Source: Psammoneis japonica (Eukaryota). Taken from it: 64,000 nucleotides of DNA. The translations under genes were made by a program, and so were the position numbers. This document shows, piece after piece, positions 1 through 56,622 of the stretch. The stretch spans positions 62,001 to 126,000 of the forward strand of contig QPGO01000194.1 of NCBI GenBank assembly GCA_008632985.1, read 5' to 3'. The notes under the pieces are model-generated. The model was not told the origin of the DNA, ran no database searches, and saw only the letters and a list, made by a program, of their open reading frames with translations. How positions within the stretch are numbered: position 1 is the stretch's first letter; each line of letters starts with the position of its first letter.

Positions 1-299
1 GACAGCTCTGTGGCTTTGTCACCAACATGGGAGTTGGGCCACACTGTTGGTGCCTTTTAGGATGAGCAGCACAGGAATGCTGTTGGCAACAACAGCATGA
101 CTTGCAAGTGGATTGTCCAACCCTGGTGCTGGAATGGACAGGTGCAGAACTTTCAGCATGATGGAGCTTGGGACCACCACAAGAGCCACCGGGTGGCAAG
201 GATGGACGCAAGCTCAGGGGCTTCCCATGGTGGACATTTGGTGGACACAACACAAAGGGCTGCAAGATGCTCATCAATGTGGGTGGGAGCCAGTGGAGA

Positions 300-1360
300 T
301 CACCAGTCTACAAAGAGAGAGGTTCAAGAGGTGACATGGAGAGAGCTTTTCCCAAAGGCAAAGTTCCTTGTCAAGGCAGACATGGCAAGCAGTGGCAAAG
401 TGTCATGGCTCATGCGGAAAAAGATGGCTGGTGGCAGTTTCAGCAAGGACAGGATTGCAGGAAGACTGGGCAAAGAAGAAAGGAGTGCATTGTGAATGCA
501 GTCAATGCAAAAAGGAACACTGTCACTCAGACGACAATGGAGAGTGCAATGGCTGGCAAGTGTTTTGTGATGCACGGCATGTTGAGTGAAGTGATGCTTA
601 ACACGACCCTTCTTTGGTGCAGTTGTGAGATGACAGAGCAGCAAGCCAAGGAATTGTGCAGTCAGAAGAGAGCTGCTGCAGAAAACCAAAGGAGGAAGAG
701 GAAGAAGAAGGCACAAGTGGAGGATGAAGAACCGCTCCTCCTGGCAACTTGGGATGATGAGACAGTGGACACCATTGTGGGGGAGAAGTGAAAGAACAAG
801 GAAGCATGTGCATGGTTCTACAATGACATCCTTAAATTCATGAAGACTGCAGTGTGGAGAAAGAAGGTGGAGCCGGGTGAGACCAAGGCTCCAGATCTAA
901 CTGTGGCAAGCAACAAGGCTCTGGGGCTGCTGACATTGGAAAACCACTGGAAGATTTGGGAGCACAAGGCCCTTCATGACAAGATTGTTGGAGGGGGGGC
1001 AGACACAGGGGACAAAGAGGAGGTGCAGTTGAAGCCATCACCCAACTGCATGGACCCAATGCAACAGCGTGACTCATGGAGTGATGAAGGAACACTGTGG
1101 TTCAACACCCCACTTGAGCAAGTGAAGGAGGGCAGGGCAAGTGGGGAAGGTGTGCAGTTCAACACACATGGTGCAGCAGCAGCGAGAAGAGGGAGAGCAA
1201 TGAAAAGGGCAAGGGAGCAAAAAAGAAGAAAATGCTGGTGGAGAAGGAGGCAAGGAAACAGGCAACAACAGAGCTTTCTAGTGACAATGAGGAGGACAAG
1301 GAAAAGAGGAAATGGAAAAGGACCAGAGCAACAAGGACAGCAAAGAAGAGGAAGAAGGAA
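300..1360 (+). pseudogene. Hypermutated relic of a probably TE-associated ORF, function unknown
   Basis: Protein-like segments across frames (TVASNKALGLLTLENHWKIW; WSDEGTLWFNTPLEQVKEGR). Apparent 67-nt intron 556-622 with GCAAGT donor (expected GTAAGT), CTTAAC branch point and TGCAG acceptor. Confidence 0.4.
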
Positions 1361-1744
1361 TTGAAACATTGACCAAGAATGAAGAAGATGAAAAAATGGG
1401 GCAAACTCTGGTGCAGTGAGGGAGCAGAGCCTGTTGTCAATGTGAGATTGGAAAACAGCAAAGCAATGCATTGGTGTTCATTGAAAACATTTACAAACTG
1501 GGAATGCAGCAATTCAGTGTTCATTGAGAGATGTTTCATGCTGTGGATTGACAAACAACTTGTGCCACACATTCCAAAAACAACATTGAATGTGTTTGTT
1601 GGCATCAATTGTTTTTGTCAAAAGGCTTTTTAAAGTCAAAAGTCTGCGGGCAAACAAGGAAGGCAATCTGAAGGGGAAATGGGGTGCATTTTCACAGTTG
1701 GTGGTTTTGTCTCATGGGACATGATGGTGGGGCTCCACAGCAAC

Positions 1745-2590
1745 ATTTTTTGTCTTTCATGTTTGATGAATTGTCACCACACACACAACTGTCAAGGTTT
1801 GAAACAATGGAATTTTGTGCTGCAATGGATTAAAAAATGACTGGGAGCAAGGTGGTCTGGATCACAGCAGTGCATGCTCTGATGAGGTTGGTTGGTGCTG
1901 TCATGGGGTTGTTTGCTTTGCTCTGGAGTTTGGAAGTTCAAATCTAATCTTGTTGGGGATGAGGTGACAAGGGGCCACAATGCCACAAGCAAGATCAACC
2001 TTGCAGCACCCTGCAACAGTTCTTAGAGTGTTTCTTGTCAGGGTCTGCCAGAGAACACTGGTGTCTTCTGCTGGCAATTGTTGGGTTGGTTGGTGCACCA
2101 TTGTGGGATCCCAGCATGCAGCAGACTTGGCTTTCTGCTGCTGTTGGGAACAAGGTGACATGGGGCCACATTGCCACAAGATCAACTTTGCAATGCTCAG
2201 GCACAGTTCTCCAAGTGTCACCTGGGGTCCACCAGAGACCACCGATGCCCTCAGCTTGCAGCTGTCAGGTTGGCTGGCACCATTGTGGGATTCATGCTCT
2301 CTGGAATTTTTGCAAAAGTCAAGTCTGTCACTGTTGGGGACAAGTTCTCAAAGTGTTGCCTGGAGTCAACTGGACATTGCCAGCACACTCAGCTTGCAGC
2401 TGTCCTCAGGTTGGTTGACACCATCATGGGGCCCTTTTGTTCTTGAGTTTGGAAGTTCAAGCATGCTGCTGTTGGGAACAAGGTGACACCGGGCACAACA
2501 TCACAAGATCTGCACCCATGGCCAGCCAGATGCTGTGTCAGTGTCCTCAGCTTGCAGCTGTTGGGTTGGTTGGTGGCATGGCCATTGTGC
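1745..2590 (-). repeat. Diverged inverted copy (~4 units plus flank) of the ~187-bp satellite family at 19.7-23.9 kb
   Basis: cctggggtccaccagagaccaccgatgccctcagcttgcagc (2221) matches the reverse complement of ~23221-23270 (ccctgggctccaccagagaccatcatcattgccctcatcctgcagc). The flank ttttgtgctgcaatggat resembles the reverse complement of 23755-23790. Confidence 0.75.
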
Positions 2591-3399
2591 ATGTGTGAAT
2601 CAGCTGCAAAGCAGCCCCACAGACACAAGCAAGAAACAAACTGCACGGGCCAGCACAAATTGACTGTGATCACAGAAACTGAGAAACCACAAAGCTTTTT
2701 CAAAAACACATGCACTGCATCTGATGGAAACAATCATGTTCAACATGATCCAGCTGCTTCACAAATGACAACCTGCAAGCAAAATGCTTTGGCAATGAAG
2801 ACCAACAACAAAATGATTCATTGAAGTTGACTCAAATGGTTTGAAACTTTGAAAATTGGGAATGCAACACAAGGCTTAAAACAAAAAGAACAACTTGCAA
2901 AATGACAAAGGCAATGAGTGATCACCAGGCTAACCAGCTCAGCTCCATGGCAAAAAGGCACATCATTGTGCCACACAAAGCAGCACAAAAACACAAGATG
3001 CATCCAAGCAGCACACAAACAATGGCAACATTGCAGGAAGGTGCCAACAATGCACCAGGACCATGCACACACCAACAAAGAAATGCCATGGGAGAGGTCA
3101 AAAGTGCAACATGGGAGCTGCCAAATGACAACAAGTGGAACCTTTTGCACTTTTTTTGTTTCTTGAAACTCAGGCAAGTTGGCAAAAACAGCCAAGGACA
3201 AGAAACAGAGTGCTGCAACATTGCGCACAGGTGTCAGCAGATTGTGCCACACTTGCCAAAGAAAACATGCCAAACAGAAACTGTCCTCTGCCAGGGAGTT
3301 TTGCTTCCACATCATCTCACAATGAAAAGCTGCAAATTTCAAACCTCTCTTTTAACACTGAACATGAGATGCTCTCACTGATGCTTCTGTTCCTTTGAC

Positions 3400-5100
3400 T
3401 GCAACACAATTTGCAGATGAGCACAATTGTGGTCTTGCAATTTTTTGTCAAACACACCACTGTTTGTGGCTTTTAAAAACTTTTCAGCAATGAACAATCC
3501 AGTTCGCACATCTCTGTGATTTTGTGATTCATTTCCAACTCCGATGTGACTCAAGTTGAAGGTGCATTTCTCATGGCTCCTCGGATTGATCCTGTGCATG
3601 ATGCTGTGCCAGATGTCAAGTCTCCACAATGCTTTTGGGCCATGTCTGCACGGCCGTTGCTGTGATTTTGACAAAAATTCTCATCACCCATGAAATCAGC
3701 AATTTCAAGATGGATTTGTGCAGACATGCAACACAAGTCAAGTCGACCATGGGATTGGTTGTGGTGGTGGCAACATTTAACACCAAATGCAAGAAACACC
3801 TGGAGTGCATGTTAAAACCTCATCATGATCATGAGGTGGCTGTGGGCACTAAAACAAGGGATCTTCATTCAATGCCTTCAATCATCATCTGAACTTTTTG
3901 CTCAATTTCTTTGTTCCTTCTGCATCTGACATGACAGCAAATGTTTTGAAGGTCTAAAGTGGGGTGCACTGTGCAGGCACCCATGACTTGGACATGTTCA
4001 ATGAAGATGACATAGAAAGGCATGAGCTCTTTCTTTGGAAACATTTTCCATGTCAAAAACAAAAGCAAACGCGGCAATCCTTGCTTTCAAGATCGTTTGT
4101 GACAATCAAATCAACTCAATGCCGCCTTAATCCATCCAAAAGTTCCAATCAATGGCTCAAGCGCCTCACTCCATGCCTGAATGAGACAATCCTGGGCAGT
4201 TGTCAGGTGCCAAAAATCTGTGGGAGTTTCTGAGGAGCCACAAGCAGTTGGACCTTGGATCCTGTGAATGTGCCAGCTCCCACCAAATTGATTCAGAGCA
4301 TGGCTTAAATTGTTCATGTTGTCTGCAAACAGGCATTTTCAAGCAGTCAATGCTTCTAAGATTGTGGGATCAAACTGCAGAAAATGCTGCCAGTGACAGG
4401 CAAATGACAACAGCTGGCCGGAACCTTTCTGTTGGACACCATTCTCATCATTTTGCATGTGCTGAACGATGCATCATTTTTTAACAACATAGATTGAACA
4501 CTTTGTAGAATGGCACAGGAAGCATCTGCTGTGCAGAAGGATGTCCAGCATGAGCCATGGCAAAAGTCAACAAACACAATTGGCAACATTGAAGCCCAGA
4601 AGTGGGATTGATCCAGTTCTTGGTGTGTGCAGGCAGTTCTCTCTGCAAGGCTCCAAGTGCTGGAAATCATTGCTGCAATGATGAGAACAGCTTTGTTAAA
4701 GATCCACATGACAAACAAGCATGGACCAGTGCTTTTAATTGCCAGTTGCAGCTGGGAGTCATCTCCCATCTTGCAAATTGTCTCCAGTGGCAGATTCACA
4801 GAATTGTGGGTCCACCAGCTTGCGGGTCCTCGCATCCTTGAATTGCTCTTTTGCTTCCTTGCCTTGCCCAAAGTTGCTTCCTTCATTGCCCAAAGGTGCT
4901 GCACAATCATTGAACAACACCTTCTCCAGGATTTCTCCACATTCTGAGTTGATCAGGCAGTTGCAACAGGACCAAGGCAATGGATGCACTTTTGCATGAG
5001 CTTTTGGTTTTGGCTCAGAATCACCTCCCATGACAGTTGGGATGTTTTCCCCTTCATCTTGATCACAAATGTCAACAAGGGATTGTTCTTCCATGCCACA
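3400..5100 (-). mobile_element. Possible Zisupton/DUF6729-like transposase relic
   Basis: Minus-strand fragments FLQFDPTILEAL and WRLDIWHSIMHRI resemble, in the expected order, the F.S.D..IL..LP and RLDIWH.M.R motifs of DUF6729/Zisupton-type transposases. Heavily frameshifted. Confidence 0.35.
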
Positions 5101-5499
5101 CCTTCAACAATGGACCTTGAGAACATTGCCTGAAGTTGTTGGAAGCAGCAACAATGGGTGAAACATGTTGGCGACAGCAAAAAAGTCATTTTTTGCTCTG
5201 CAAGTGGCAAAAGCAGCAATGTTTTAGCACAACATGTTAGATGCATGAGTCAACAATGAGATCAAACCAATGCATTGTCACTTTTGATGCAAGAATGCAA
5301 GCAACAATGTTTTTGCTGATGAACGGCAACTCACCATTTTTGTTCAGCAACTTTTGTGCATTTTCTGCACTGAAGCATGTTGGAGGCAGATCTGAAATCT
5401 CTGCCCCCCAAAAAGAAGGAAGTTTTTCAGTGCTGCCGTAGAATCATCCACATGGAAATGATGTCACAGTGCAAAATGCCATTTTCGCACAGCAGTGTG

Positions 5500-6200
5500 C
5501 ACTCTGCGAGCATCGTGTCTCCTGCATCTGTTGTGTTTCCTGTGAGAAAGCCATCCACAGTGGTTGCTGTTGGTTCCCTGGCATCACATGCCAAATTGGC
5601 GGAACTTCCCCAAGAAGTCAAGGATGTCTCACTTCAACCCCCAAGCATTTTTTGTGGCAACTCCATTGTTTTGTGCAATGGCAGCATCATTCACAAGACA
5701 GAGTGATTGTCTTCTCTTCCCAAGATTGAACCAATGCTGTCACCAACTCTGATGATGTTGTTGTTTGATGTGGATGACTGCGGCCACTGCATGGACATGC
5801 ACCCCATTCCCTCAACTTCAGATTTTTGGCATGGCCATCATTGATTTTGGATCTGCAACACCACCAATGCCTCCATTGTCCAAACAAGACCAACGGCAGT
5901 GGGGCAATTGTGCAAGAGGGCCATCGAGGTTTGTTGCCATCCACCTCTCCAACTCTTCCAGCGCACAAACATGATGGATCTGGTCACATCCACCCCCTTG
6001 GTTGCAGATGATGATCCAAGCCTGTCTCTTCAGAAGACATCAAAACACAGCACCAAGCATGAGAATGAGTTGGTGCAGCACACAATTGACTGCCATGACA
6101 TGCCCATGATGGGCATCCCTTTGCACAGTGTTTCAGCTCAAACGTCACTCACAGTGCACCCATTTTCTTCCAACATGGACACAACTTGTGGCTCTGTTCC
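5500..6200 (+). mobile_element. Internal fragment of the LTR-element family seen at 24779-27501
   Basis: QIFGMAIIDFGSATPPMPPLSKQDQRQWGNCARGP aligns with QIFGSAIENFRHTMPPILPLSEQDQWKQGSCERGP at ~26225-26330. Confidence 0.7.
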
Positions 6201-6299
6201 CTCTTCTCATTCAAGCATCCATGTTGGATCAAGGTGCATTGCATCCACTGGTTTGACTGGTGTGTTGTGTGTGCCATCTTTTGGCCATTTCTACCTGCA

Positions 6300-9200
6300 T
6301 GTTGACACTTGCATCTTGCAGTTTTTGCCATTGCTTTCAAGTGATTGTCCTGCAAGACATGTCCAAGACTTGCCAAAATGTCTTGACAAATGCCTTTGTT
6401 TGTCACAGGGCCACATTTGCAATTGTCGTCATCCAAGGACCACCACCCCAAGCCTTTCAATGACTTCAACTGCAAACCACAATCAACCGACATTCTTTCT
6501 GCTTTTTTTCTTGAAGAACCTTTGTCATTGATGACGTTTCATCCAATGGCATCCACTGCAGTTGCTGTTGAGCCTCCCTGCCATCTGTGAGAGACTTGTG
6601 CAACACTTGCGCACATTGACTGGGATTTTCTCATGACTTTGGAGTGTTTGCATGATAGAATCACTCTCCTGCTCCTCAAGAATGCCACAATGGCAACAGT
6701 TCTCCAAGATGCATCTGGCCTGATCAACCCCAAAACTGCTGGCACTCCCGATGTGATGCAAGTTTGGCTAATTTTTGAATCAACTGCTCTGAGCATTGAT
6801 CATTTGGGGGCATCAACAACACATGCTGATGATGCACTTGGTGTGGATGCTCAGATGGATCCCACGAGTGCAAATTCACAGGATGTCAAGTCTGCCATGT
6901 CTGACATTTAAAGTTGATGCTGGCCGGCAATCTCTTCTCAGCAGCCATTTGACTTTGAATCCCACTGAACAGTCCCACCCATCTCCCAGGGCCGGGAAAC
7001 AGTGGCACCATGCATGCTCCCTTTTCTGCAAAGATGATTCATTGGAATTGTGACATCCTCCAGGACAGTGGGCAGTGCTGGCAACCAAGGTGCGCATGTC
7101 CCACACAGCACATTACAAGCCTTCAGAAGACTGTCTCTGCATTTGTGCAGATTCAGGTTTTCAGACATTTCCAGTGATCAATGGATGCACTGTGACTGCA
7201 GATGCTTTGGAGACAGTCTCCAATGTCTCTCCTGCAGCTTCCCCAGCATTGGCACATGCCACCTGCACCAGTTGTTGGCAAACAACTTCCCCAGGCACAT
7301 TGGTTTCCCTGCCATCTGCTCCTCTGGCTCCCAACAATTTCATGGCAATGTTGCAATCTCTCCCCAAATGGGAGTCCTTGTTGTTTGGTGATTTGACCAC
7401 ACACATGTCAGTGTTTGAGACTGCAGACCTGCTTGTCCATCATTGTGCCACTGTGGTCAGTGATGGATCTGTTCTTAATTTTCTGGGTGCATTTGGTTGG
7501 ACACTTGCAGTTGACGGCACTCCATTGGTGGATTGTGCTGGCCCAGGCAACTGGTTTTCGTCAATCATCTTACCCAGCCGAAGTGCGCGGAATGTTGTCT
7601 TTCCTCAATTTCTTGTTTCAGTTGATGCAATGTTGTTGCAAAATGCTTGCCAAAGGTGCGGACATGCACTGTGATGACTCCTCACTTGTGTGCAATGTTT
7701 CCAATTTCCGGGCTTCTCCCTGTTTTGCCAATGATGAGGCAGTTCAAGGTGCCAGAGACTGTCAGCAGCAACATCACATTGCCGGCACTCTCTCCACAGA
7801 TTGGGATGCATTGCATGAAAGTTTTCATTCCATGCAACAAATTTTGAAATGTCTCATGATGAACAGCATGGCACCAACGTCTCTGTCCACCAGGTCAAGG
7901 GACACCAAGATGACATGACACCCATGGATTCCTTGGCCTTGGCAGCTTGGTTGAATGTCAGAGCCAACAGGCTGGCAGGGCAGTGCCAAGGTCATTGCTT
8001 TGGAGACATCCTGTTTGTGCCTTGCATGCCTCATTGCAATGCCAACCTGATTGTCAATGGTGCCACAATGTCAGCCAAGCACAAGCCGGTCATTTGATGT
8101 GATGCATCCAGCCTGGCTCTGGTTTGTCACATGAAAGACAAGCATGGATGGTCTGACAAAATCTGTGGGATGATCAATTGGGAGGCACGTGCCAAACCAA
8201 TGTCTTGAAATGTCCACCGGAAAGTTGGCACTGTCAAACTGGTGCAGGAACTTCTCCCAACAAACAAAACTGTCCACTGGTGCAACCCCACTCACCCAGA
8301 TTGCTGCATTCACTGTCAAGATCCAATGGAAGACAGAGACCACATTCTTTGTTGTCCACACAATGAGGCATGGCACCAAACATTTCTACAAGGACTGTGC
8401 AAGAAGTGCAATGACATCTGTGCATCCCCATCTTTACGTGATTTGATTCTTTCTGCCATGAAGTCGTGGTTCCAAGTGGAGTTGCTTTGCGCCAATGACC
8501 TTCATCACAGTGTGGTGTCAGTCTTCCAGTCTCAGGAGCAAATCAGATGGCATCAGCTGTTCAATGGATGTTTTTCCAAAGCTTGGAATGTGGCTCAAAC
8601 CTTGCATCTGTTGACAAGCAGCACTCATCAGAACCTCTCTGAACATGAGAAGAGATTGGATTGGGCAGCTGCCATCGGCAATTGCATTTGGGAGCAGTGG
8701 TGGGAGTTGTGGGAAAACGCTTCATGGTTCAGAAACAAGGCAGTCCTCCCAGCGTTGGGGTGCCAAAGTGGAGGTGAAAGCTGTGTGCTTGAGATCAGAC
8801 GATTGTCTGGCAAGAGACAGGGTGCATCTGTTGGATTCGGTTGAAGAACATTTGACACATTCTGCACATTGTCTCTGCAATTGGCTGGCTGTGGTCAGGC
8901 CAATGATTGAATCAAGCATTGGAGAAGCAAAATGGTTTGCTGCAGGAGGCACGAGAACCATTGCAAGTTGTTTTGGTGTGGCATCACCCTCGCGTGATGC
9001 CAATTTGGGCCAGTTGCCATGTGCTCCTGCTGCACTGTTAGTGTGCTGGAGGTGTGGCTTGGCTTGTTGCTGGAGTTGCAGGGTGGAAGCACAGCAGCAC
9101 TTTAAACATGGAATTTTGGTTTTGTTTTGCCATGTCTGACATGATGCCCATCAGTGTGCCATCTGCTGTGGTTGATGGATCCTCAGTGTTGGTCATTGAA

Positions 9201-10800
9201 TTGGTGGCATTTTCTGCAGATGTCAGTGCCAGTCTGCTTTAGACCTCTCAGGTTTTTGGTTCTGGCAACTCCAATGTTGCATGCAATGGTGGTCATGCTC
9301 CTCCAAAGGATGGAACATGCTCCATTGCCAAGGTTGCATCTGAGCTGCTTGCCTCCTGTGCAATGCCATTGGGTGATGCTCATGAAAGCTGCAAGAAATC
9401 TGTTGATTGTCAAGTTTTTTTGCACCCGGATTTTTGGTTCGGCCGTCGTCAATGTTGGACATGCGATGCCATCATTCCTTCTCTCATTTGCACTAGACCA
9501 GTGGAAGTGAGGCAATGGAAAATGAGTGCCATGGAAAATGAGTGCCGCCAAGCATTGTTGCCTTCCACTGCGTGACCTCTTCCCTGCACCATCCAGACTG
9601 TTGGCCTGCTGTGTTGCATTTTTCATGGTGCTCTCGACCTCCCCACCATCATTGATGATGATCCTGCATTTAAGATCCGGGAGGGATCAACACAGTGCAG
9701 AGGAGGCACACAAGGCTTTTCAGTGTTTGAGATTAGACCAAGATGCCACATTTGGTGATCGGCATTTGCAAGTCCATGGATGCTCACCTGCCCAGCATTC
9801 ACCTTCTTTCTGTGTCAAGTTGCTCCAGGCTGCATCCCATTGCAGCAAAGAGGAAGCCTGCAGGTCCAACGGAAGTGGAGTGACCCTGCAAGAGGGCTAC
9901 AAAGTCTCATCACCTTCTGCCTCAACACATCTTTTGTTCACTGACAAGACCATTGTGGCATCAAATGGCATTTTTCCTGGTGCTCCCAACCTGTTGACCA
10001 TCACAGATGATGACCCTGTGCATTGTGAACAGGGGAGAGATCCCTGTGGTGCAGTGCAAGCACACAAGGCTGTTCAGCATGCAAGATTTTTCAAGCTGCC
10101 ATGTCTGATGGCCAAGACATGCACATGCTGCCATCCTCACCTGTTGTGTGCACATGTTTTTCCAATGTTGAGGACTTTTACAATGCATTTTCTTTGTCCA
10201 ATGTGTTTTTCAAGGATGAAGCAAAATGTGACAGAGGTGCTGCTTTGTCCAGTGGGCTTCTTCCATTTTATTTTTGCCACAGCATGCACCATGGTGAATT
10301 TCCATCCAGCCCCATTTTGCTGGATGAGATTCAGCAAAACATTGTGATTCACCAGAATGTCCCTGGCTTGCCTTTGCCTTCAATCATTTGTTGACCAACA
10401 GAATTCTTCCTTCAATCAAGACTCAGTTGACATGCAAGAATTGTTGGAAACTGCCTTTGATTTTTTTGTCCAAAACTTCAATGGATCAGCACATGTGCCC
10501 TGCTGCCATTGGCTTGAAGACTTTTTGGAGATGTGTCGTTGCCCTGTGGGTGGTTCTTTTGTGTTTGCGAGTTGAGCTTGGACACTTTGTTTTGTCATCC
10601 AGTCTGTTCTCACACATCATCCCTGTTCTTTTGTTGACCTTCATTGTCTTCTGCATTTTGACATTGCAGATCAGGGGAGGGTGTCAGTCTGCCTGTTGTG
10701 CAATGGACAGACTGTGTGCAGATGATGACTGGCTGGCTGGACCTCTCAGATGGGTGAGCAGATCTCTCTGAGATCTGCCTCTCATTCTCTTCTGCTGGCA
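6300..10800 (+). mobile_element. Second, diverged copy of the LTR element, interrupted by a LINE
   Basis: DALGVDAQMDP..VKSAMSD|MMPISVPSAVVDGSS aligns across the LINE with DALTVDSRMDP..IKSTVSVVEPVGKPSTDIDAGS. IFPGAPNLLTI and SNVFFK are shared. PPT atcaggggaggg is followed by TG at 10682. Confidence 0.75.
6908..9127 (+). mobile_element. 5'-truncated non-LTR retrotransposon (RNase H plus C-terminal CCHC region) with 15-bp TSD
   Basis: RNase H motifs VSDGS..GAFGW, SSY(P)AE.GMLS, (H)CDD, VKGHQDD, LNVRANRLA. Zinc knuckle C..C....EDRDHILCC, then WHQLFNG.FSKAW. tgccatgtctgacat is duplicated at 6893-6907 and 9128-9142. Confidence 0.9.
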
Positions 10801-12615: not shown

Positions 12616-12619
12616 GGTG

Positions 12620-24074: not shown

Positions 24075-24400
24075 GATGCGTTGAATTTTTACCCAACAAT
24101 TAGAGAAATGAGTTGAGAGTGGGCCGCGATTGAGAATTGCTGGGCCGCGATTGAGAAAATGAACATGCAAACATCAATCGATGAGGGCAGCCACAGCAAA
24201 AGTGTTGGATGCATTGGATGCATTGGATGCATTGAGTTGTTGCCCAACAATTGAGAAGAATGCATTGAGAGTGGGCCACAATTGCGAATTGCTGGGCCAC
24301 GATGAGAAAATGAACACACAAATGTCAATCAATGAACATTTGCGGTGGAAGCATTGGATGCGTTGATTTTTCCCAATTGGAGGAAGAATGCATTGAGCTT
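24075..24400. repeat. ~150-bp tandem duplication (about 2.3 units) with internal gcattggat repeats
   Basis: cccaacaatt...gagagtgggcc(g/a)c(g/a)att...gagaaaatgaaca occurs at ~24092 and ~24243. Confidence 0.8.
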
Positions 24401-24778
24401 TGACGAGGAGCTCAACGACCATGACCACCAGTCAACTCGACAGCATCATCCACCTGTCGTTGATGACAGTCTGACAAAGTCAAGAGCAACCCGTGGGAAA
24501 TGGCAGAATGCAAAATCCTCATTCTTGCAGCGGAAAAGGGGTCACAGTGAATCCAGTGCGTGCAAAGTCAATGGTCAATTCCGCGGCACATCCTCAGAAG
24601 CAAAAGCACTTGACAGAGTCGAAGGATGAGAAATGAGAAACTCCAGGGTGCCGTGGTGATTGAGGCATCTTGTTGGAAGGCGGTGTCGCATTGCTTTTTT
24701 CACAGTCTGCCAAGAGTGAGGATGCTGTGACCTCCTCACACTCCAAGGACTGCCGATGTCGCTGGGAACAAGTGAGTC

Positions 24779-27501
24779 TGACAGACATCCGAGATGGGGA
24801 GTGCACTCCCTTGTGTCAGACAGACTGGCATGGACAGCATGGAGAGATCCGATGATCTCTCCTTTGCTCACTTTCTTTCTCATCTAGCACATGATTGTCA
24901 TCTGCCCTGGATGTCCGTTAGATTGTCCCGACACCGCCAGTCCGTGAGGTTGTGAGCAGCAGTGCGCTGTTCCTCTTCCTCTGTGCTCATCCACTGCAAT
25001 GCCTGTTGTGTGATTTGGTGACCTTTTCTTCGTTGAAATCGTTGTCATTGTCACAGCTGTTTTTTCACCTCTCGATTTGTGATCAAACGACCACCGCACA
25101 ACACATGCCAGAGCTCTGCACAGGAATTTGATTTTTTTCCCGCGCAACCATGGTGAACAAAAATCAAAACACCGTCGATTTGACCAAGATTGAGATGATG
25201 CAGGTTGAATTCAGCCCACATGATCACTCACCCGATGCCCGCACTTTCCTGAACACCCTTCATTCGGATGCGATCCCTGCTCCTGAAGACATTTTGGATG
25301 GATTCACCCCTCAAGGCCTCAAGAGCGACGCTCTTTCCATTCTCCGTCATGAGATCGTTCAGAATCTCATCATCCCTGAAGCCACCCTGACCAAAGATCT
25401 CACACGAATTGGACCGATCATTGAAAAGGCCCCTCTCTTTGTGGCCACTCCTCAAGGCTCCCCGGTTCATCTGAACCTCAGTGCTCTTCAGAACGCTGTG
25501 GTTGAAGCAATCACAGAGAACCACAGCACCATGAAGGTGTGTGTTGGCACTTCATGTTTCCATTTCAGTCCTGATTTCCAGCATTGTGATTGCTGGGATG
25601 ACATTTCAGATGATCCGCATCCAGTCCCATCATCTGCTTCAAGTTCTGCATCCCCACCGGTTGCTGCCACAGGTCCTGCTCCTGAAGACTTTGCTGAGGC
25701 CTTAGCAACTCATTTGCCTGGTCCAAACGAGCATGGGCAAGCTGTGGCTGATGGATTGAAGAGCATTTCGAGTTCTCATGCACATGCTGAGTCCAAGTTG
25801 TGCCCAGATCCTGCCTCTGCCACCACCAGCTACAACGCTGCTGTTGCATCTCGTGTTGAAGATGCGCTCACTGTGGACTCTCGGATGGACCCTGTGGATG
25901 ACAGTTCCTTGAACATCAAGTCCACTGTGTCTGTTGTGGAACCAGTGGGCAAGCCATCTACAGACATTGATGCTGGATCCCTCGAACTTCCCACCAAATC
26001 GATGGCACTTCCTGCCGATGTCCGCTCCTGCCTGCTTGAGACCCTGAAGTTTTTTGTTTCTGGCTGTTCTGCTGTTAGATGCTAAGATGGTCACACTCAC
26101 CTCAAGGATGGACTGCCCTCTCTTACCAAGGTTACACCCAAGCTGTTTGCCACCTGCGTGCCGCCGTCATCTGACACTTGCGGATGCTGCCAGTGCTCTG
26201 TTGGTTGTCAAGTTGATTCGCACTCAGATTTTTGGTTCGGCCATCGAAAATTTCAGACACACGATGCCGCCAATCCTTCCATTGTCCGAACAAGACCAAT
26301 GGAAGCAGGGCAGTTGTGAAAGAGGGCCACGGCGTCTTGCTGCCTTCTGCCACTCCGTCTCTTTCCTCCCTTGTCAGGACCATTGCCATGTCTAAAAGTG
26401 CTTTTCATGGAAGTGTGCAAGGTTGACAATCACACCAACTCTTCCAGCACATCGTCTCTTTCCTTCGCTGTCAAGACCGTTGTTGTGTCGAGCAGCATTT
26501 TTCCTGGTGCTCCCAACCTGTTGACCATCCCCAATGATGACCCTGCATTTGTTAATCAGGGGAGGGATTCCCACGACGCAGAGGAAGCACATCAGGCCAT
26601 TGAGAACCCAATCTTCCGCCAAGACACCTTGCTTGATGATCATTTTTTGAACGCCGTGCGATGCTCACCTCCAACACGTCACTGTTCTTCCAACGTTGAG
26701 CGACTTCATGATGCATTTTGTTTCTCCAATGTGTTTTTCAAGGGCAACACAAAGTGTGGCAGAAGTGTTGGTTTGCCAGGTGGGATGCCATTGCTTCATT
26801 TTCAACGTGTCACTCGCCATGGCGGACTTCCAATTTTTGGCTCCATCTCTTCCGATGATTTTTGGCGACAGGATGACTTGCCAGAATGTCCCATTGCGGT
26901 CAATTGTTTGTGGATTGACAAAATTTTTCTTTGGTGCACGACTCATTTTGTCCAAAAGATTTGTTGGGAACTGCCTTTGATGTTTTTTGTCAAGACTGAT
27001 GCGTTGAGCGCGGGATGGATGTTTTGTTCCCGACATGCTCGTCCCTTGATGGGACACTGCCGTTGATTGTTGTTGTGTTTGTGGACCAAGTCTTGGCCAT
27101 TTCTTTTGGTGCTCTTCTTTGTTCTGCTATTCTGGTCCTCTCTTTTTATTCAGATTCTCTCTTTCTTTCTTGTTGAGCATTGCATTGCTCATCAGGGGAG
27201 GGTGACAGACATCCGAGATGGGGAGCACACTCCCTTGTGTCGGACACACTGGCATGGACAGCATGGAGAGATCCGATGATCTCTCCTTTGCTCACTTTCT
27301 TTCTCATCCAGTGCACGATTGTCATCTGTCCTGGACATCTGTTAGATTGTCCCGATGCCGCTAGTCCGTAAAAGTCATCTCGCACTGTGTTTTTGATCTC
27401 GCATGTGCTGTGGTTCTTGCAAAGGAACTCCTCTTGGTTCAACCAAATTCACTTTTCCTTTGTCAGATCCACAGTCCGGATTGTTTGTCACCTGCTCAAC
27501 A
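24779..27501 (+). mobile_element. LTR element lacking recognisable pol (probably non-autonomous), single internal ORF
   Basis: 167-bp direct repeats at 24779-24945 and 27203-27369, each starting with TG. PPT atcaggggaggg lies immediately before the 3' copy. ggttgtgagc (PBS-like) follows the 5' copy. The 3' LTR probably ends tcaaca at 27501. Confidence 0.85.
25150..27066 (+). pseudogene. Internal ~640-codon ORF of the LTR element, broken by a stop and frameshifts; no recognised domain
   Basis: ORFs 25150..26085, 26054..26395 and 26371..27066 are collinear. The same frames are conserved in the copies at 5.5-6.2 kb and 6.3-10.6 kb. Confidence 0.65.
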
Positions 27502-28215
27502 GTGTGGTTTGAAGGAAGACAATGATTTGCAGATGCCTCTCAGCAAACATCGATTCTTTGGGTGAATTGCTTGGCACAGCCCAACACGGTGCCTGTTCGA
27601 AGCGAGGTCACAGCAGACAGGCCCAGGACTGGCAGCGTTGGGCTGCAGAGGAAGGAAAGATGCGCAACTGCTTGTCGTGCAACTGCTTGTTGCTGTAGAG
27701 AAGGGTGTGCGAGGCTGGCTTAAGATGTCGAAGAACGGGGAGAGCTCTGCTTCTCCATGTTGTTGGCATTGGGAGGTGGCAAAACACGAAACATTTGCTT
27801 CTTCTTTGCAGTGGCAAATCTTTTAATCTCAACAGGTTGTCACCTTCAAATGTTCTCATGCAGACCCTCTGGTGCAACAAAGGGACCCCATTTGAGTGAA
27901 TTTCTTGGTGCGTCGCAACAAGCACATTCGAGAAGGGCGCGCTGGAGGCAAGGCTTGGGAAAGCGCAGATCTTCATCAAAGACAAATGTGTCAACTGTGG
28001 ATGTGGATGCGACGCAGAACGATGTTCGATGCGACGTCGTGCCAGACAATTTGAAAATGCACCAACACACAAGACTTCTTGTTGTTGTTTGTGCACCAAA
28101 CCAAGTTTTGCCAACTGTGGTGCTCCTTCGCAAGATGTCGAGGACTGTTCGCTGTTGTGTTTTCCTCCGGAGGAGCCACCCCAACCCCAAACGCAGGTTC
28201 CACTTTTCGCGAGTG

Positions 28216-28218
<3 letters not shown>

Positions 28219-28250
<32 letters not shown>
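28219..28250. repeat. (CT)16 microsatellite
   Basis: Direct reading. Confidence 0.95.
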
Positions 28251-28251
<1 letters not shown>

Positions 28252-28449
28252 GCAGTGGCAATTAGAGTGCAGTTTCACCGCACAGTCGGAGCAGTCAAAC
28301 CCAGCTTGATGCCACCCGCAACAAAGCAAATGCCGGCAGCTAAAAATGGTGCAAACAGAGAAAAGCCCAGAGAGTGGAATCAACACACATGCCGGTGGAA
28401 CTAGTTCATGCAGTGCAATGCCAATGAGGCAGCATTTTCTAGTTCAGAA

Positions 28450-30090
28450 CACAATGTGTGTTCTCCACCCCAATCGTTTGTTTTGCTGTTTGGCTTCAGG
28501 CATGGATCTGTGAACGCTGGTTGTGTGATCTCCCAAACTCGGAGCAATGCCTTGTGTCTTGGAACGAATCCGCATGCACCCAGCCAACTTGCTGCCGTTG
28601 CCATTCTTCTTCTCGACCGAAACATTGACGAGGACATCATCATCAAAGACACTGCAAAAACAACAAAAGCATGCTTGCATTAGTTGACGGTTCAAGGACT
28701 GAGAAACTTGACTTGTGTCAGCAAACAGACATGATGCGCCAACGCGCTGAAGGTGCGCGTAAGGACTGATCCCACAGGGGCACGCTCTCATGCTTGCAAT
28801 GCAGTGCTAAATGCATCACAAGGCACCTCGGTGCCGACAGTTTCGCGAGAAGAAGTCATTGCTCATGCAAAAGCATGCTGCGCAGTGTCCAACACGAAAA
28901 CGGGAAACAACCAGAAAGCGCATTGAAAACAAGCAATGTCTTGCCTTCTTGCAAAGAGGTTGGCGGCAAGGAATCTTCCCGTTTCTGACGTGTCATCCAG
29001 ATTGAGGCAACGCATGTTGGTCGACTCGACAAATTGATTGAGAAAATCCAACAAGCTGGGAATCGAGGTTGAAAAGGCCGCCTTGTTTTCCCATTCAAAC
29101 TCGGCCCACATGGATCGTTGAAAGGCTTCGTCGGTGCAAGTTGTGGGGCAAATGTAATCCACAATGTCCATGTGAACATCATTGAGATTGATGCATCCCT
29201 TCTCTCCTGTCGCCGTGTCTTTGAAGACAATGACTCCAAAAATGTGCCCCGTCTCTGTGGAGGAGACCTTGATGGATGTGTGGACGGTGATCTGATCGAG
29301 AGGGCCAATGTTTTGAGATTGCGGGCGTTCAACAATCTTCATGCAACCCATGGTGGTGAGCTCCACCACCAAGTTGGCTAGTGTGTTGGGAGCACGATTG
29401 ATGACCAGAATCTCCAAGACAATGCCATGATCATGGACCATGGCAAAGGCCTCCACGTGAACATCATCTGCAAACCTGCTGAGTTGGTGCACATGATTCA
29501 GTTCAGAGCTGAGCAAATCGGCAGCACCGGCATGCCAAGTGGCACGTTCCAAATCATCTCCGTCGTCAAGGTTGACTCCACCACCCCAAACAGCCATGGA
29601 ATGCAACTGACGAAAGTGAGCCAAGTCGTCAGGCTGCGCCATGGCGAGTTTGCCTGCATCGTCCTCTCCGTTGGCCAAAGCTTCATTGGTTTCTTTGTCC
29701 TTGAGCGTGTCAAGAAACTGGCAAATGTTGCTTTGCCATCGTTGAAGAGAGTGTCCTTGAGCAAAACACATGCCTTGGAGCCCAACAGTGCAAGGCAGCA
29801 TGGTGCAGTGCATCGGACGTCATTTTCTTAATCACCAAATGCATCCAATTTCAGGCAAATCTGGGAAGTTAGAATGGTTCCCGAGAGTGCGTCACCACCA
29901 CCAACTGTCTTGCGCAAATTAGGAGCATCACCCGACTCGTCCGGACAAACAGCTTTGGAGCAGACTGTTTGGGTCGCATGAGTGCCGGCGGCCAACACAG
30001 CGTTCTTAGCAATCATTTTGGGAGGCTCTTCTTCTTCGTGATTCTCTTCCTTGGCGATCAAGAATGTGGTCGGACCTGGCTGACTTTGCA
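28450..30090 (-). pseudogene. COPB1: Hypermutated 3' part of coatomer subunit beta, intron retained
   Basis: QPDDLAHFRQL, VINR..TLANLVVELTTMG.MKIVERPQ, IKVSSTETGHIFG, MWAEFEWENK, STNMRCL, FLAANLFAR|SVF.DDVLVNVSVEK, RIRSKTQGIA.SLGD. Intron at 28652-28944. Confidence 0.95.
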
Positions 30091-30099
30091 TTTTGTGTC

Positions 30100-30620
30100 A
30101 TTCACTCGTGGCAGTGATGCGTGTTGTTGATGCAGATGTGGCACTTTCTTGCTTGTGGCGCTGTTGACCTGGAAGGACAATGCTTCTTGATTGCAGGTGT
30201 TCCTTGGACGGATGCAGCGTTCATGTGGTGGCTGCGCTGCAGACCGCAGACCCCAAAAAGGCACAGTTGGGCTGTCATGGCGAGAAAATTGCTGCGTTCT
30301 GGATTGATCTTCAGCGAATGAAATGAGCAGGAGCAAATGCCAGCTGGCTCAGAACCCAAGCAGTCAACAGTGCTCTGAGTTGGATCAGCGCCTTTTTGTT
30401 CAGAAATCCAAGCATCTCCTGACACCAAGCCACAGAGAAATGTTTGGGTTGGCGACTCCACAATGCAAGCCACTGAGCCTTGAGGGCCTTGCACCCCCTC
30501 ATCCCAGATCAGCTCAAAGTGCCCCCCCCCCCGCCCCTTGGCTGCAACAAGAGAACAAGGCTGGTCCATCCCTGCACTGGCACTGAAGAGCACCAATTTG
30601 ATCAACCACTGCCTGTGCGT
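30100..30620 (+). mobile_element. Possible older fragment of the CRE-like non-LTR element 3' end
   Basis: ccccctcatcccagatcagctc and ctggtccatccctgcac resemble 31865-31930. Confidence 0.35.
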
Positions 30621-30999
30621 GGTGATCAAATGTCAACCTGTTTTGTCAAGATGCCATCAATTCCACCCTGCCAAGTTGGTCAACACCCCCCCACCATGCA
30701 GAGTTCAAATTCCATCCATCAGTGCAGGCAAAAGTTGGTTCATTTGCACCTGAGATCACCACCTCTCATTCACATGACTGCATCAACTGCATGACACCCT
30801 CTGCTTTCATTGCATGCAACTGATTCCCAACACAAAAATGTTGGTGTCCTTGTTGAACATGTGTGATTCTGAACAGCTCTTTTTCATGATTTTTCTCACA
30901 CAGTGAGCAACCTCAAAAACCTCTCATTTCTGGACACACAACATTTTGGCAATGGACAAATCACCACAAAACAGGCTTCATTGCTTTGTTTTGATTGCC

Positions 31000-31960
31000 C
31001 CAGCCAAGGGCAGTGTGGTTCTCAAGGTGCTGGAATTGGGTGTCTTCAGAATGACAGCTCATTTTGTGCTGCTGGAAGGGGACCACACATGCTCCAAGCA
31101 TGATGGCTGGATGCAATTCTTGCGACAACTCTTGCCATGGTGGCAGGACACCTCCCATCACAGTGGAAGCAGTGCACACATGCTGTGCAAGGCACTTGAT
31201 GCTAAAATTTGTGCTGCAGTCTCAAGCAACAAAATCAAGTTAAACCTTTTTGAGCTTCACACAGAAGGCCAGCCAGTGCACAGCCAAAGCTGCAAAACCA
31301 CTCAAAGTCCTTGGCAAGCAGCAGTGGCTGGGCATTTGTGCAACTGGAGGTGCAGCAGGATCTGCACAGAACCAAAGAAGTCATTCTTGCAGAGCACTGG
31401 TGGCTGGCAGGAAGCCCAGGTGCCTCCAACAACTCACAAGGCACCACAACTTCCAACATGTCCCCAAGGATGGCAATCATCATGGAGATCTTCTGGCAAA
31501 AGGATTCTGGGACTGGAGAGCAGACGCCATCACAGATGTGTTTGCACTCTGGATGCAGAGATGCAAAGTCACACCCATCCAAGATGCCACCAGCCAGAAC
31601 AAGTTCTGGCAGACCGCAAATGACAGAAACAGTGCAAATGCCTCAAGCCCTGCCTTGAGCAACATCGCTGCTTCACTCCCTTTGTTGTGTCATGCGATGG
31701 GCTGCTCAACAATGAAGCCAAGGCAAGGCAGCGCTGCATGTGATCTCTTCCAAACCCAGCCGACAAATGGCAAAAGCCACGTTCAAAGGCATGTGGCTGC
31801 ATCAATGCAAGAATGAGCACTGCTGTGGTGCAGGCGACTCACCTTTGCCTCAGGGGATCATGCACCCCTTTGTCCCAGACCAGCTCCAGATGTGTCCCCA
31901 GTGGGAGGATGGCACTGGCCTGTCCCTGCACAAACACCAAATGACACCACTTGAGCCGGA
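31000..31960 (+). mobile_element. 3' end of a CRE-like non-LTR retrotransposon with restriction-like endonuclease
   Basis: HGDLLAKGFWD..ADAITDV, FTPFVVSCDGLLNNEAK and KWQKPRSKACGCINARMSTAVVQATHLCLRGS match the typical RLE C-terminus. Confidence 0.8.
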
Positions 31961-34953
31961 TCACCACTGCCAAGACCAAACATCAACTGCCGACTTGCAG
32001 ACCATTCCCACACATGGCCCAAAGACAGCCAAAACACCATCGCTGATGTGGCAATGGTGCCAGACCTCATTTGAATGTCTCTCACAGCACGCAGATGATG
32101 AAAAAGATGTGGCTGCGGTTGTGCTTTTGCCATGAAATGGGTGCAGCAGAAGATTCTTCATGAAGACTGTGGTCAGTGCAATGCATGCAATCACAATGGG
32201 GGCAACAGTGTTGACAAAGAGACAGACATTGGCAAGAGCGTGTTTCAATTCAACAAAGTTGGATTTGTGTGTGGTGAGCAAGGACATTGTGAGCTGGGCT
32301 CTGGAGCACAAATTTGCACTGAAAGAAGAAAAGGATTCAAGTTGTTGCATGTCACAAAAGAGGGTTGGTTCAAGTTCAATGATGAGAAGCTCATTTTGAA
32401 AGGAGAGTTGTTTCATTGTTGTGTCAGTTGTGCAATCATGAGGGCACATTGGATTTCAACAGGGGTGCACTGCTGTCATGCAAACAACGGATTGGCAGCT
32501 GAGTTGTGCAGTGCCAGATGCAACAAAAAGACAAATGCAGCAGAAACACAAAAAGGAAATGTGCAATGGGGAGCTGAGTTGAAGCTCTTCCAAACAAATG
32601 AGAGTCAACTGTGAGCAAGATGCCAAGCAACAAAACAAACACTGCAAATCCTTGACACTGGAAAAATCAATTGTTGTCCTTAAATGGCAACTTTGGCAAT
32701 GCCCAATTTGCAGCTGAAAATGAGCCAGTGTCAAAGCATTGTTCAGAATCACAGCTGCAGTGTGACAGCCTTGGCTGATTGCCTTGGCTGATTTTTGAAA
32801 AATTGTGACACTTCTTGTGGAGAGTGCAATCACAGTGTAAAAATTTTGATTCTTGTTGACAGATCAAGAGGGAGAACATGTGTTTGTGGACAGACATGCC
32901 AGCTGGGCAAACTCACATGTTCGGCCCAACAAACTTTTTGGTTTGTTCTGATCTGACATTTGGGCAAAAATCCCACTCATTCAGCAACACTCTTCTTGGA
33001 TTCTTTCCCAAAAAATGTCTGAATTCTGACAGGCAATCAGACTTGAATCTCTGGAGTCCCAGAAGTGCTGTCTTGCACTCATGGGGCCAACAAAATGTTG
33101 AGAATGGATGCAAATGCTGCAGCACAACCTTTTGGCACCCAGCAGGCATTGAGATGGGCAGCTGCATCTTGTCTAAAAGGTTTTGCTGCCCCCCAACATC
33201 TGAGCAGCTAAAACAAAAGTGCCCAGCCACCACAGACTGCTGGGGCACTTCAGCCGCAGTTTGTGGCAAACTCCTGACAAGGCACTCTTGTTGTTTTGGA
33301 GCAGAAAAGAGTCATGGCATTCTCCTGCACATGCTGTGCTTGGCAGCAAGCAACATGACAAAAGCCGTCAGAGCACTTCTTGTTGGAGCAGAAATTGATT
33401 TAAAAGAGCACAAAGCTGTGCTCAGAGCCTGAGCTGCAAAAATCAGCAGCAAGACTTCAAGGACAAGCTTCTGAGTGAGATCACCAAGCAGTCTCATGTG
33501 AGCAAAAGAGGGGGTGCCTGCACTGTTCTTGCCAGCAGGGGGCGAGTCAGGGGCAAACCACTCACCTGGCTGATTTTGCTCAAGAATGGACACCTTGACA
33601 AGAGTGACCTGGCTCTAATGTGGGCACATGTGTGAGCAGGGCAACCATGTTCCCAACAACATGTGCCGTTGCCAACTCAGAAACTGAGTCAAGAGAATGT
33701 TCCAACAGATTTGCCAGAAGCACTTGACATGGGCATGGGCGTGCCACTTTTGAACAATGATGCCATGAACTGCAAAGAGTGCATGATGTTGTGTTTGCTC
33801 TTCCTCCAGAGCTTTGACACCTCTGCTGCTGAAACTGCCACCTCCACAGAGGGAGTGCATTCACCTGGTCAACAAAGCTTTTTTGTGCACATCTTGAGAG
33901 ACACATGCACATGACCAAGCTGCAGCTCCACAAGTCCCACATTGCAGTGGACAGTGGGGTTAAGACAGAGCAGTTGGGACAGAGAGAAAAGGAAGACATG
34001 AGACACACAGGCTCATCTCTGGACTGCACCAGAGGTGAAGGCTGCATGAGAGGTTGGGATGTCAAGAAATTTGAGAATCCCACAGGCAACAAACAAAATC
34101 TTTCCCACTGCAGCACAAATTCACCTGCCATTGTCATCGATTGCGAAAGACATGGGATGTAAAACCAGGTTCATTGGCATTAAACATTTCGCATTGAATC
34201 ACTCTCCATTCAGAATGTGACATGTGTTCCCCACTCTAGATTTCTTCTTTTTCGCGGCCATGTGAACCGGTGCATGATCGGTGCAAGAAATGCTGTTATC
34301 TCGTGGAGAAAACTTGCTCACTGTTGTTTTCCCTTCATGGTCATCGATGTCCTTCTTTCTCTCTTCCCTTCTTTCCTCTCTCCTCTCCTCTCCTCTCCTC
34401 TCTCCCCCCCTGGTTTTCATGTATTTATTCATTTCGCCAATAACACAAGAAACTTGCGGGCAAGAGTGGCCTCTCGAACGCAATGCGGCAATCCATCTCT
34501 ACAAGAATGAGATTTTATAACCGACAACAATAACTCTAATAAAACCACCTTATCGCCCTATTCTTCGAAAGCAACACATTCATGGTTTGACAGAGCTAGC
34601 ACAATATGAAACTTGGTTGATAGCAAAGGGAGGTCTGAGTTCACCACGACAGCACACCATTGTGCGAAACCAGCACTGCGTTACATCACCAGCATACCAA
34701 TCAACACAACACTTCATTCTCACCCACACACTGTGAGCGGTTGGTGCATGGCACCCCTAAAAGGAAATGAACACATATTTTACACATAACATCGATCTCT
34801 GTCAAGAAGGTAAACAGAAAACACATCATCAATGAGTGAACAGAACGAAAAGAAAGAAGCAAATACTCGTGGATACCCTTCATTTGATGAAATGCTTTCA
34901 AGACTTACCTTGCGAAGCGGCCACTCGGCATCCAGCTACATCCATACCGAGGC

Positions 34954-56520: not shown

Positions 56521-56622
56521 GTATGACATTGTGTACATTTCTACACGATTCGGTGTTTTTCCTCAAATGTAAAATTCTAATTATGACTCTTCCGACATCT
56601 TCGAATGATCCTGTTGGGAGTT

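Follow-up and report, generated by a model that had tools for sequence, protein, structure and literature searches.

Near-complete loss of TpA to CpA and TpG in repeat- and pseudogene-rich blocks of the diatom Psammoneis japonica

A stretch of 64,000 nucleotides of nuclear DNA from the diatom Psammoneis japonica (contig QPGO01000194.1 of assembly GCA_008632985.1, positions 62,001 to 126,000, forward strand; hereafter the window) contains sharply bounded blocks in which nearly every TpA dinucleotide has given way to CpA or TpG. Only TA and CG are affected, and only by transitions; the loss of TpA is faster than the loss of CpG and separable from it. The changes reveal a sequence-reading activity that works at the DNA level in bounded domains, hits each strand independently, and has a trinucleotide preference. 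In the reading favoured here, which is given an even chance of being correct, the blocks are silent domains rich in repeats and pseudogenes, and an enzyme acting on DNA, putatively by deamination of adenine, has converted TpA to CpA or TpG while CpG decayed in parallel.

TpA loss, its borders and its flanking bases

The ratio of observed to expected TpA (O/E) is 0.00-0.15 in three blocks, at 1-15005, about 19720-34421, and 53392-56521, and 0.5-0.8 in the flanking gene regions. In 2-kb windows, it is 0.03-0.09 in the seven windows of 1-14000, 0.02-0.11 in the seven of 20001-34000, and 0.01 at 54001, against 0.52-0.69 in normal windows. On the same scale, the O/E of TG reaches 1.42-2.16 and that of CA 1.50-2.00 in the blocks, and both stay at 0.93-1.31 outside. 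CpG is scarce as well, with an O/E of about 0.05-0.3 through most of the block DNA, or 0.08-0.22 in 2-kb windows, and about 1.0 in the intervening gene regions; the exceptions inside the blocks are 0.55-0.69 at 24001-30000 and 0.35 at 54001. Counted per 500 bp, TA occurs 0-6 times in the blocks (9 times in a single window) and 11-40 times in normal DNA. In total, the 32,722 block bases still hold 127 TA and the 26,703 normal bases 1,108, so that the blocks have 9% of the normal density; the corresponding CG totals are 500 and 1,541, i.e., 26%. The TA density switches at about 15006, 19560-19721, 34422, 53391, and 56522, each border being sharp to 100-300 bp. Intact genes lie beside the blocks, among them those for an amine oxidase, RFC1, a ubiquitin hydrolase, and an FAD-dependent oxidoreductase. 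These profiles confirm an earlier reading of the window made by a model from the letters and the open reading frames (hereafter the sequence-only reading), which had described TpA and CpG as nearly absent, TG and CA as saturating, and the borders as sharp. The same reading had placed the direction of change opposite to that of fungal repeat-induced point mutation (RIP), and this holds: TpA is lost, CpA and TpG are gained, and the GC content is 0.47-0.51 in the blocks and 0.47-0.48 outside. The parts of the blocks and the other features are collected in Table 1.

Table 1. Features of the window; retention of TpA and CpG is relative to their density in normal DNA
Feature	Position	Strand	Remarks
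Block 1	1..15005		TpA kept at about 10%, CpG at about 15%; the window begins within the block
Multicopy family copy	9199..10470	+	Second copy at 25997-26991, 66% identity; 36 CA/TG double differences
KLDCLSRC peptide	11322..11345	+	Followed by RHDSD/SPPRR-like repeats
KatG (catalase-peroxidase) C-terminal tail relic	12570..12800	+	E<=0.01 for 12 of 29 candidates, each carrying the peroxidase domain PF00141
Block 2, satellite part	19720..23300		TpA kept at 3%, CpG at 10%
187-bp satellite	19720..23300		About 19 units, 65-87% identity; adjoins the sharp left border of block 2
Block 2, CpG-keeping part	23301..30400		TpA kept at 16%, CpG at 61%; multicopy families, including the pair 24779-24945 / 27203-27369
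Beta-COP pseudogene fragment	28486..30169	-	Orthologue residues about 430-975; one frameshift near 29760
Block 2, remainder	30401..34421		TpA kept at 7%, CpG at 13%; TA density back at 34422
Block 3	53392..56521		TpA kept at about 2%, CpG at 34%
Partly converted region	60350..64000		TpA kept at about 30%, CpG at normal level, GC 55%; extends past the window end
504-amino-acid open frame of a small diatom family	62038..63549	-	Lies in the partly converted region (about 70% of TpA lost, no CpG lost)

What the blocks have lost in TA and CG they have gained in CA and TG. The summed fraction of pyrimidine-purine dinucleotides is 0.237-0.253 in the blocks and 0.233-0.245 outside. CA and TG together make up 0.230 of the block dinucleotides, where normal DNA leads one to expect 0.137 from its own CA and TG, 0.042 from TA, and 0.058 from CG. 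The part of block 2 that keeps most of its CpG fits the same balance, with a correspondingly lower CA and TG sum of 0.197. Purine-pyrimidine dinucleotides are almost unchanged between blocks and normal DNA, and AT, AC+GT, TT+AA, and CT+AG stay near normal while TA has fallen to its 9%. Small shifts, namely, a rise of the dinucleotide GC and a drop of TC+GA, match the flank prediction from TA and CG both turning into CA or TG.

The two losses do not run together. TA retention is below CG retention in all five block parts (Table 1), and the TA-poor domain overshoots the CG-poor domain at three borders; in the last 1 kb of block 1 (14016-15005), for instance, CpG is dense again and TA is still absent. 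TpA loss is decoupled from CpG loss, since both 23301-30400 and 60350-64000 have lost TpA while keeping CpG, the former largely and the latter in full. CpG itself is kept at 10-61% across the block parts with a matching gain of TpG and CpA, as decay of methylated CpG predicts, and the blocks are probably methylated. The sequence-only reading had proposed a second, T:A-to-C:G process at TpA that is distinct from CpG decay, and support for it comes from the mass balance, the two CpG-keeping regions, and, as described below, the Tyr codons and the differences between repeat copies.

At the edge of block 1, about 25 CG stand in 450 bp of TA-free DNA (14016-14460). A 102-bp direct repeat (13987-14088 and 14324-14425, 93% identity) lies at this CpG-dense edge.

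The few TA that survive in the blocks are unevenly distributed over their flanking bases (Table 2).

Table 2. Survival of TpA by flanking bases, as length-normalised retention in blocks relative to normal DNA, with contexts folded over both strands
Context	Normal DNA	Blocks	Retention
ATAC	175	0	0
GTAC	89	0	0
ATAT	74	0	0
ATAA	142	5	0.03
ATAG	123	5	0.03
CTAC	160	16	0.08
GTAA	135	19	0.12
CTAG	60	11	0.15
CTAA	96	37	0.32
TTAA	54	34	0.51

No RTAY site (R, purine; Y, pyrimidine) is left in the blocks, against 338 in normal DNA, and the count is zero in every one of the five block parts. RTAY is also the most depleted class in 60350-64000. The ten context classes are reproduced by two independent half-sites whose survival depends on the base N in 5'-TAN-3'; fitted by hand to the counts, it is about 0.72 for A, 0.39 for G, 0.18 for C, and 0.06 for T. 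The relative half-site rates are about 8.5 for TAT, 5 for TAC, 3 for TAG, and 1 for TAA, and the order T > C > G > A at this base is the same as A > G > C > T in 5'-NTA-3' on the other strand. RTAY is erased and half of the TTAA survives because this order of flanking bases sets the rate on both strands. Such strict dependence on the dinucleotide and its flanks requires a sequence-reading protein of one kind or another.

Gene relics and repeat copies

The fragment of a beta-COP pseudogene in block 2 has its nearest relatives among diatom coatomer subunits (Attheya, Thalassiosira, Cyclotella, Odontella, Epithemia, and others), at 59-73% identity. Polarity was assessed by aligning this relic to 50 diatom orthologues, which gave 284 columns with a conservation of at least 80%. 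Of the 10 such columns with Tyr, a single one still has it in the relic (five His, two Cys, and two Phe in the others), compared with 201 of 274 columns for the other residues (Fisher p=7.7e-5), and the replacement codons for His and Cys at these sites are CAY and TGY. Pooling three relics, i.e., beta-COP, the KatG tail, and the open frame at 62038-63549 (called here TET/JBP-like, see below), gives 2 of 14 for Tyr and 253 of 339 for the others (p=6.7e-6), and 10 of the 12 changed Tyr have become His or Cys, the other two Phe. Nonsynonymous single-step C-to-T and G-to-A changes in beta-COP lie at CpG in 11 of 13 cases. In the TET/JBP-like frame, one of three conserved Tyr is kept (the others are Cys and His), all six conserved Arg are kept, and Leu-to-Pro (codon CCA) and Val-to-Ala (codon GCA) changes are also seen. 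Judged by these relics, the state of the blocks is a mutation pattern and not a native composition.

Peptides in which the sequence-only reading had seen Tyr replaced by His or Cys can be compared with their orthologues. GTHATQTVC corresponds to GTYATQTVY, with Tyr in 98% and 100% of the 50 orthologues and CAT and TGC as the codons in the window, and LAGCMRIR to LAGYIRIR, with Tyr in 13 of the 25 orthologues that have a residue there and TGC as the codon. AECCA of KatG is AEVYA in 12 of 12 catalase-peroxidases. The fourth peptide, KLDCLSRC, was located as well; Pfam gave no match to BUD13 at E<=0.01, and the peptide is putatively the BUD13 N-terminus with a Tyr-to-Cys change. At the same threshold, the segment 10501-13500, read through stops in the three plus-strand frames, revealed neither BUD13 nor any other Pfam family. 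Fragments of unrelated host genes, the putative BUD13-like one and then the last 50 or so residues of a catalase-peroxidase, follow each other within 1.5 kb of the plus strand at 11322-12800, a mosaic which suggests gene-fragment capture or repeated segmental duplication.

The beta-COP relic has retained a 293-nt intron (28652-28944, minus strand) with the donor GCAAGA and the acceptor GCAG; the donor would be the expected product of TpA hypermutation of GTAAGA. Sequencing run X2 is transcriptome-like, its contigs skipping a canonical GT..AG intron at 34799-34908. Contigs of this run also skip the 293-nt intron and differ from the relic by 10-18%, and the relic is, for both reasons, a DNA-level duplicate of an expressed gene. 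From the expressed copy to the window, the X2 contigs total 69 AT-to-GC changes, 65 GC-to-AT changes, and 67 transversions, all counted irrespective of sequence context. Apart from the diverged beta-COP contigs, X2 gives next to no cover over the blocks, which is not taken as evidence of silence.

Repeat copies show that the mutations postdate the duplication of the copies. Among 14 aligned units of the 187-bp satellite, CA and TG alternate at 9 dinucleotide positions, compared with 0-3 for five control pairs of double transitions. A rare third state occurs at these positions, CG at some and TA at others. CA/TG double differences number 36, 12, and 4 in three repeat pairs of the window, against at most 10 for any other class. 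Of the 15 bases that differ in the youngest pair (24779-24945 and 27203-27369, 91% identity), 13 fall in CA/TG, CA/TA, or CG/CA/TG. Runs tests for strand coordination along the copies gave z=+1.7 and +0.1, i.e., no clustering, and the strands are hit independently at each site because the product varies from site to site without runs. The satellite also has a higher-order periodicity of three to four units, with those at 19802, 20720, and 21466, for example, being alike.

The sequence-only reading had called the blocks rich in transposable elements, and this was at best partly borne out. A Pfam search of 162 open reading frames of at least 90 amino acids (147 plus 15) returned beta-COP as the sole match and no reverse transcriptase, integrase, transposase, or viral domain; the blocks consist of satellite, multicopy families, and gene fragments. 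The frame at 26320-27063, which represents the best family within the window, has no relatives among 1.84 billion representative sequences, and no Rfam family reached its gathering score. The restriction to repeats, claimed in the same reading, is only partly shown. Contigs of run X1 that were placed on the window are less than 99% alike to it in 2,284 of 2,792 cases, with 4-19 distinct contigs per place among the places listed; related copies therefore exist in the same run. Between 33008 and 38343, X1 contributes no contigs, perhaps through a filter, and this gap is given no weight. The mutations, however, affect the whole domain.

Proposed adenine deamination and its alternatives

De novo hypermutation of TpA has been reported in mutation-accumulation lines of Bigelowiella natans, where two integrated viral regions had gained 231 mutations, 230 of them A to G or T to C, all at TpA (Mettrop et al., 10.64898/2026.01.13.699255). 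The targets were integrated DNA of nucleocytoplasmic large DNA viruses and virophages, and the rate was about 6e-7 (about 1e-7 to 1e-6) per site per generation, in some lines only. The B. natans genome also has clustered windows poor in TpA and rich in CpA and TpG, including reverse transcriptase, DDE, and non-viral genes. The authors proposed an ADAT2-like adenine deaminase, and their main text makes no mention of flanks, CpG, or diatoms (10.64898/2026.01.13.699255).

In both cases, nearly all changes are A to G or T to C at TpA, and the strand decides between TpG and CpA as the product. Both are also confined to regions with an unaffected neighbouring genome and have a long-term footprint of TpA depletion with CpA and TpG gain; in B. 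natans, the process raises GC against the usual mutation bias. Unlike that chlorarachniophyte, a member of Rhizaria, the organism here is a diatom and hence a stramenopile. De novo events and a regional Rho(TpA) of 0.45 stand there against a near-saturated long-term footprint here, and two viral insertions, one of them single-copy, against a satellite, multicopy families, and host gene fragments without a viral domain. The combination with CpG decay and the clear preference for RTAY over YTAR are further differences of the diatom blocks.

In the reading favoured here, the blocks would be silent chromatin domains of the diatom nuclear genome, rich in repeats and pseudogenes, in which an enzyme-driven process at the DNA level turned nearly every TpA into CpA or TpG, while decay of methylated CpG into TpG or CpA went on in parallel across most of the same DNA. 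A DNA-acting deaminase of the TadA/ADAT lineage, brought to silent chromatin, would turn the adenine of 5'-TA-3' into inosine, which is read as G, and the process would be of the same kind as the hypermutation of integrated viruses in B. natans. Its outcome would be the irreversible inactivation of repeats and gene duplicates, with Tyr turned into His or Cys and the splice donor GTA into GCA. TadA and ADAT enzymes target an A preceded by U (U33-A34 in tRNA). Adenine deamination is preferred because of this preference and because an episodic, induced enzyme fits the B. natans data.

Several points weigh against this reading. By sequence alone, A to G on one strand is indistinguishable from T to C on the other. 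The enzymatic step is putative, and the targeting to silent chromatin is read from CpG decay. The preference at the base after TA (T > C > G > A) differs from that of ADAR and of fungal TAD2/TAD3 editing, and the TET/JBP-like gene family in the window favours a rival chemistry. The product, CA or TG, agrees with the half-site model per context at r=0.59 only, a value confounded by CpG products and neighbouring changes. In the beta-COP relic, only 12 of 22 nonsynonymous single-step A-to-G or T-to-C differences from the orthologue consensus are in TpA context, and two conserved Tyr became Phe (TA to TT), which is no transition. Compared with the expressed beta-COP copy, only 3 of 9 A-to-G or T-to-C changes are at TpA among 25 differences in beta-COP, which belong to 40 listed of 1,547 in all, a depth-ranked and non-random subset. 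Given this ranking and the 10-18% divergence of the expressed copy, the changes outside TpA are probably ordinary old divergence laid over the targeted process.

Oxidation of thymine is a possible alternative, although we lean against it. A TET/JBP-type dioxygenase would oxidise the thymine of 5'-TA-3' to 5-hydroxymethyluracil (5hmU) or 5-formyluracil (5fU), a mark laid in silent repeats beside 5-methylcytosine (5mC), which by occasional mispairing with G or by repair to C would yield T-to-C changes; the mark would then decay through TpA in the way that 5mC decays through CpG. TpA and CpG losses are indeed co-located here, and the 504-amino-acid frame within the partly converted region is probably a TET/JBP-type 2-oxoglutarate- and Fe(II)-dependent dioxygenase. 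It has three database relatives, one of them from Seminavis robusta, and for this homologue (P0122) all 30 named matches in the Atlas are Tet_JBP clusters at 0.95-0.96, with a structural TM score of 0.72. H404-x-D406, H460, and R465 are invariant in the four aligned sequences, the cofactor motif being read by eye. The family assignment is only a lead, however, as neither Pfam (including PF12851) nor PDB profiles gave a match to the frame even at E<=10, and an AlphaFold model built from four sequences was unusable, with a predicted local distance difference test (pLDDT) score of 33. The window copy is itself mutated and may be the cargo of a mobile element or may be linked to the modification chemistry. 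Base J in kinetoplastids is an enzymatic modification of thymine. According to passages of one article, dinoflagellate TET/JBP homologues place 5hmU on repeats that overlap with those carrying 5mC, the two marks silence transposable elements, and older work found TA and TC to be preferred (PMC11572971). Dinoflagellates, too, belong to the lineage of stramenopiles, alveolates, and Rhizaria (SAR), and the mark described in those passages resembles the diatom pattern in its placement on repeats, its TA preference, and the 5mC alongside, with a TET/JBP-like gene present in this window. The passages describe no mutational footprint. The diatom blocks show no effect at TpC, as CpG decay accounts for the drop of TC+GA, which does not occur in DNA that has kept its CpG; the lack of a TpC effect counts mildly against a thymine modification of the TA/TC type. 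A useful rate of T-to-C change from 5hmU or 5fU is presumed, and the episodic mutation among B. natans lines is a better fit to an induced enzyme than to a standing mark.

The remaining explanations are weaker. Other DNA-level chemistry or biased repair at the flexible TpA step, such as N6-methyladenine (6mA) at TA followed by deamination, or G:C-biased mismatch or base-excision repair in heterochromatin, is improbable. TpA is self-complementary like CpG, and a maintained symmetric mark is conceivable, but repair bias alone leaves the near-total conversion and the sharp borders unexplained, and the 6mA of eukaryotes is known from ApT within active genes. A-to-I editing of repeat RNA by an ADAR- or ADAT-like enzyme, followed by reverse transcription and reinsertion, would agree with the U that RNA-editing enzymes prefer before the edited A (stated also in 10.64898/2026.01.13.699255). 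The process nevertheless acted on DNA and not on RNA, because the beta-COP fragment keeps its intron, the mutations extend to the 187-bp satellite and to 15 kb of heterogeneous contiguous DNA, and CA and TG are gained at similar levels on the same strand, without strand runs; the 162 open reading frames contain no detectable reverse transcriptase either, and editing of RNA is very improbable. A sequencing or assembly artefact, e.g., from miscalled modified bases in heavily modified DNA, is hardly credible. The runs X1 and X2 come from one sample and one study and are probably the assembly's own data, so that they exclude assembly error without being an independent confirmation. Still, contigs of X1 (283-1132 nt, word depth 55-72), assembled from k-mers, agree with the blocks apart from 0-5 differences each, a frameshift, stops, and truncations mark the relics, the copies differ from one another at CA/TG, and a flank-dependent residue of TA remains. 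Least credible of all is that foreign DNA brought this composition with it or that TA and CG were selected against, given that conserved Tyr positions of host-derived relics are in the derived state, the mass balance is exact, the copies diverged in place, and no viral domains were found.

Known systems and wider meaning

Fungal RIP is likewise a process akin to genome defence that hypermutates duplicated DNA by transitions within restricted regions, prefers a certain dinucleotide, has sharp borders, and destroys reading frames. It is homology-dependent, premeiotic, and dependent on RID/DIM-2. Unlike RIP, which changes C to T mostly at CpA and thereby makes TpA and AT-rich DNA, the diatom process changes T to C and A to G at TpA and leaves GC unchanged or higher. 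Decay of methyl-CpG accounts for the CpG-to-TpG/CpA half of the pattern and cannot remove TpA. Animal APOBEC and ADAR enzymes provide a further parallel, as deaminases that edit the selfish DNA or RNA of viruses and retroelements and favour a particular base on the 5' side. Their edits are C to T, or A to I at the RNA level, typically in strand-coordinated clusters, in contrast to the A:T-to-G:C change in DNA at a palindromic dinucleotide, without strand runs, that is seen here.

The sequence-only reading had known of no description of the signature in diatoms. A full-text literature search found no diatom report of it, and the remark stands to that extent, but the same TpA-to-TpG/CpA signature was published for B. 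natans in 2026. In the accessible part of its text, a diatom mutation-accumulation study reports a GC-to-AT bias and contains neither "TpA" nor "transpos" (PMC6604790). New here are the saturation, the co-occurrence with CpG decay and yet independence from it, the repeat and pseudogene targets, and the RTAY flank rule.

Targeted T:A-to-C:G hypermutation of nuclear DNA had, as far as was found, a single earlier report, one preprint on one chlorarachniophyte. The diatom footprint adds a second major lineage and shifts the process from a curiosity of one species towards a widespread process of genome defence or heterochromatin. It also brings specifics that are open to testing, namely, the order TAT > TAC > TAG > TAA, the independence from CpG, the strand-independent hits, and a TET/JBP candidate in the same DNA. 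The responsible enzyme would be of interest as a natural A:T-to-G:C editor of DNA. A further proposal, which we consider rather unlikely, is that an ancient system common to diatoms and chlorarachniophytes recognises RTAY where DNA is silent or foreign and modifies it chemically, possibly through thymine oxidation of the TET/JBP type instead of adenine deamination, and that TpA decay is its mutational shadow, as CpG decay is that of 5mC. If a system shared across SAR algae existed, TpA would be a second "epigenetic" dinucleotide, and maps of TpA and RTAY depletion would reveal silenced DNA in many protist genomes. Its enzyme would then be a natural editor of T:A to C:G that works on double-stranded chromatin.

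Environmental relatives of the TET/JBP-like gene were found at seven loci. The two long environmental contigs, L001 (1-10663) and L002 (1-13776), have a TpA O/E of 0.45 and 0.35, respectively, with raised CA and TG and no sharp blocks. Together, their RTAY:YTAR ratio is 0.58 (106:183), against 1.6 (338:210) in the normal DNA of the window, which serves as the reference in place of their own baseline (chi-square p=9e-12). Taken as a hint only, these contigs may reflect the same process acting more mildly in other organisms.

In blocks of this kind, homology searches miss genes and transposons, and the finding of open reading frames is biased, as the stops TAA and TAG vanish; the GC and substitution models used in diatom genomics are distorted as well. 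The blocks of the window are rich in spurious-looking long open frames of up to 317 amino acids on both strands, e.g., at 25132-26082 (plus) and 21267-22211 (minus), because TGA is the sole remaining stop. A 117-bp tandem repeat at 58805-59385, with five copies at 98% identity, lies in normal DNA that contains TA and CG; it is young and not hypermutated.

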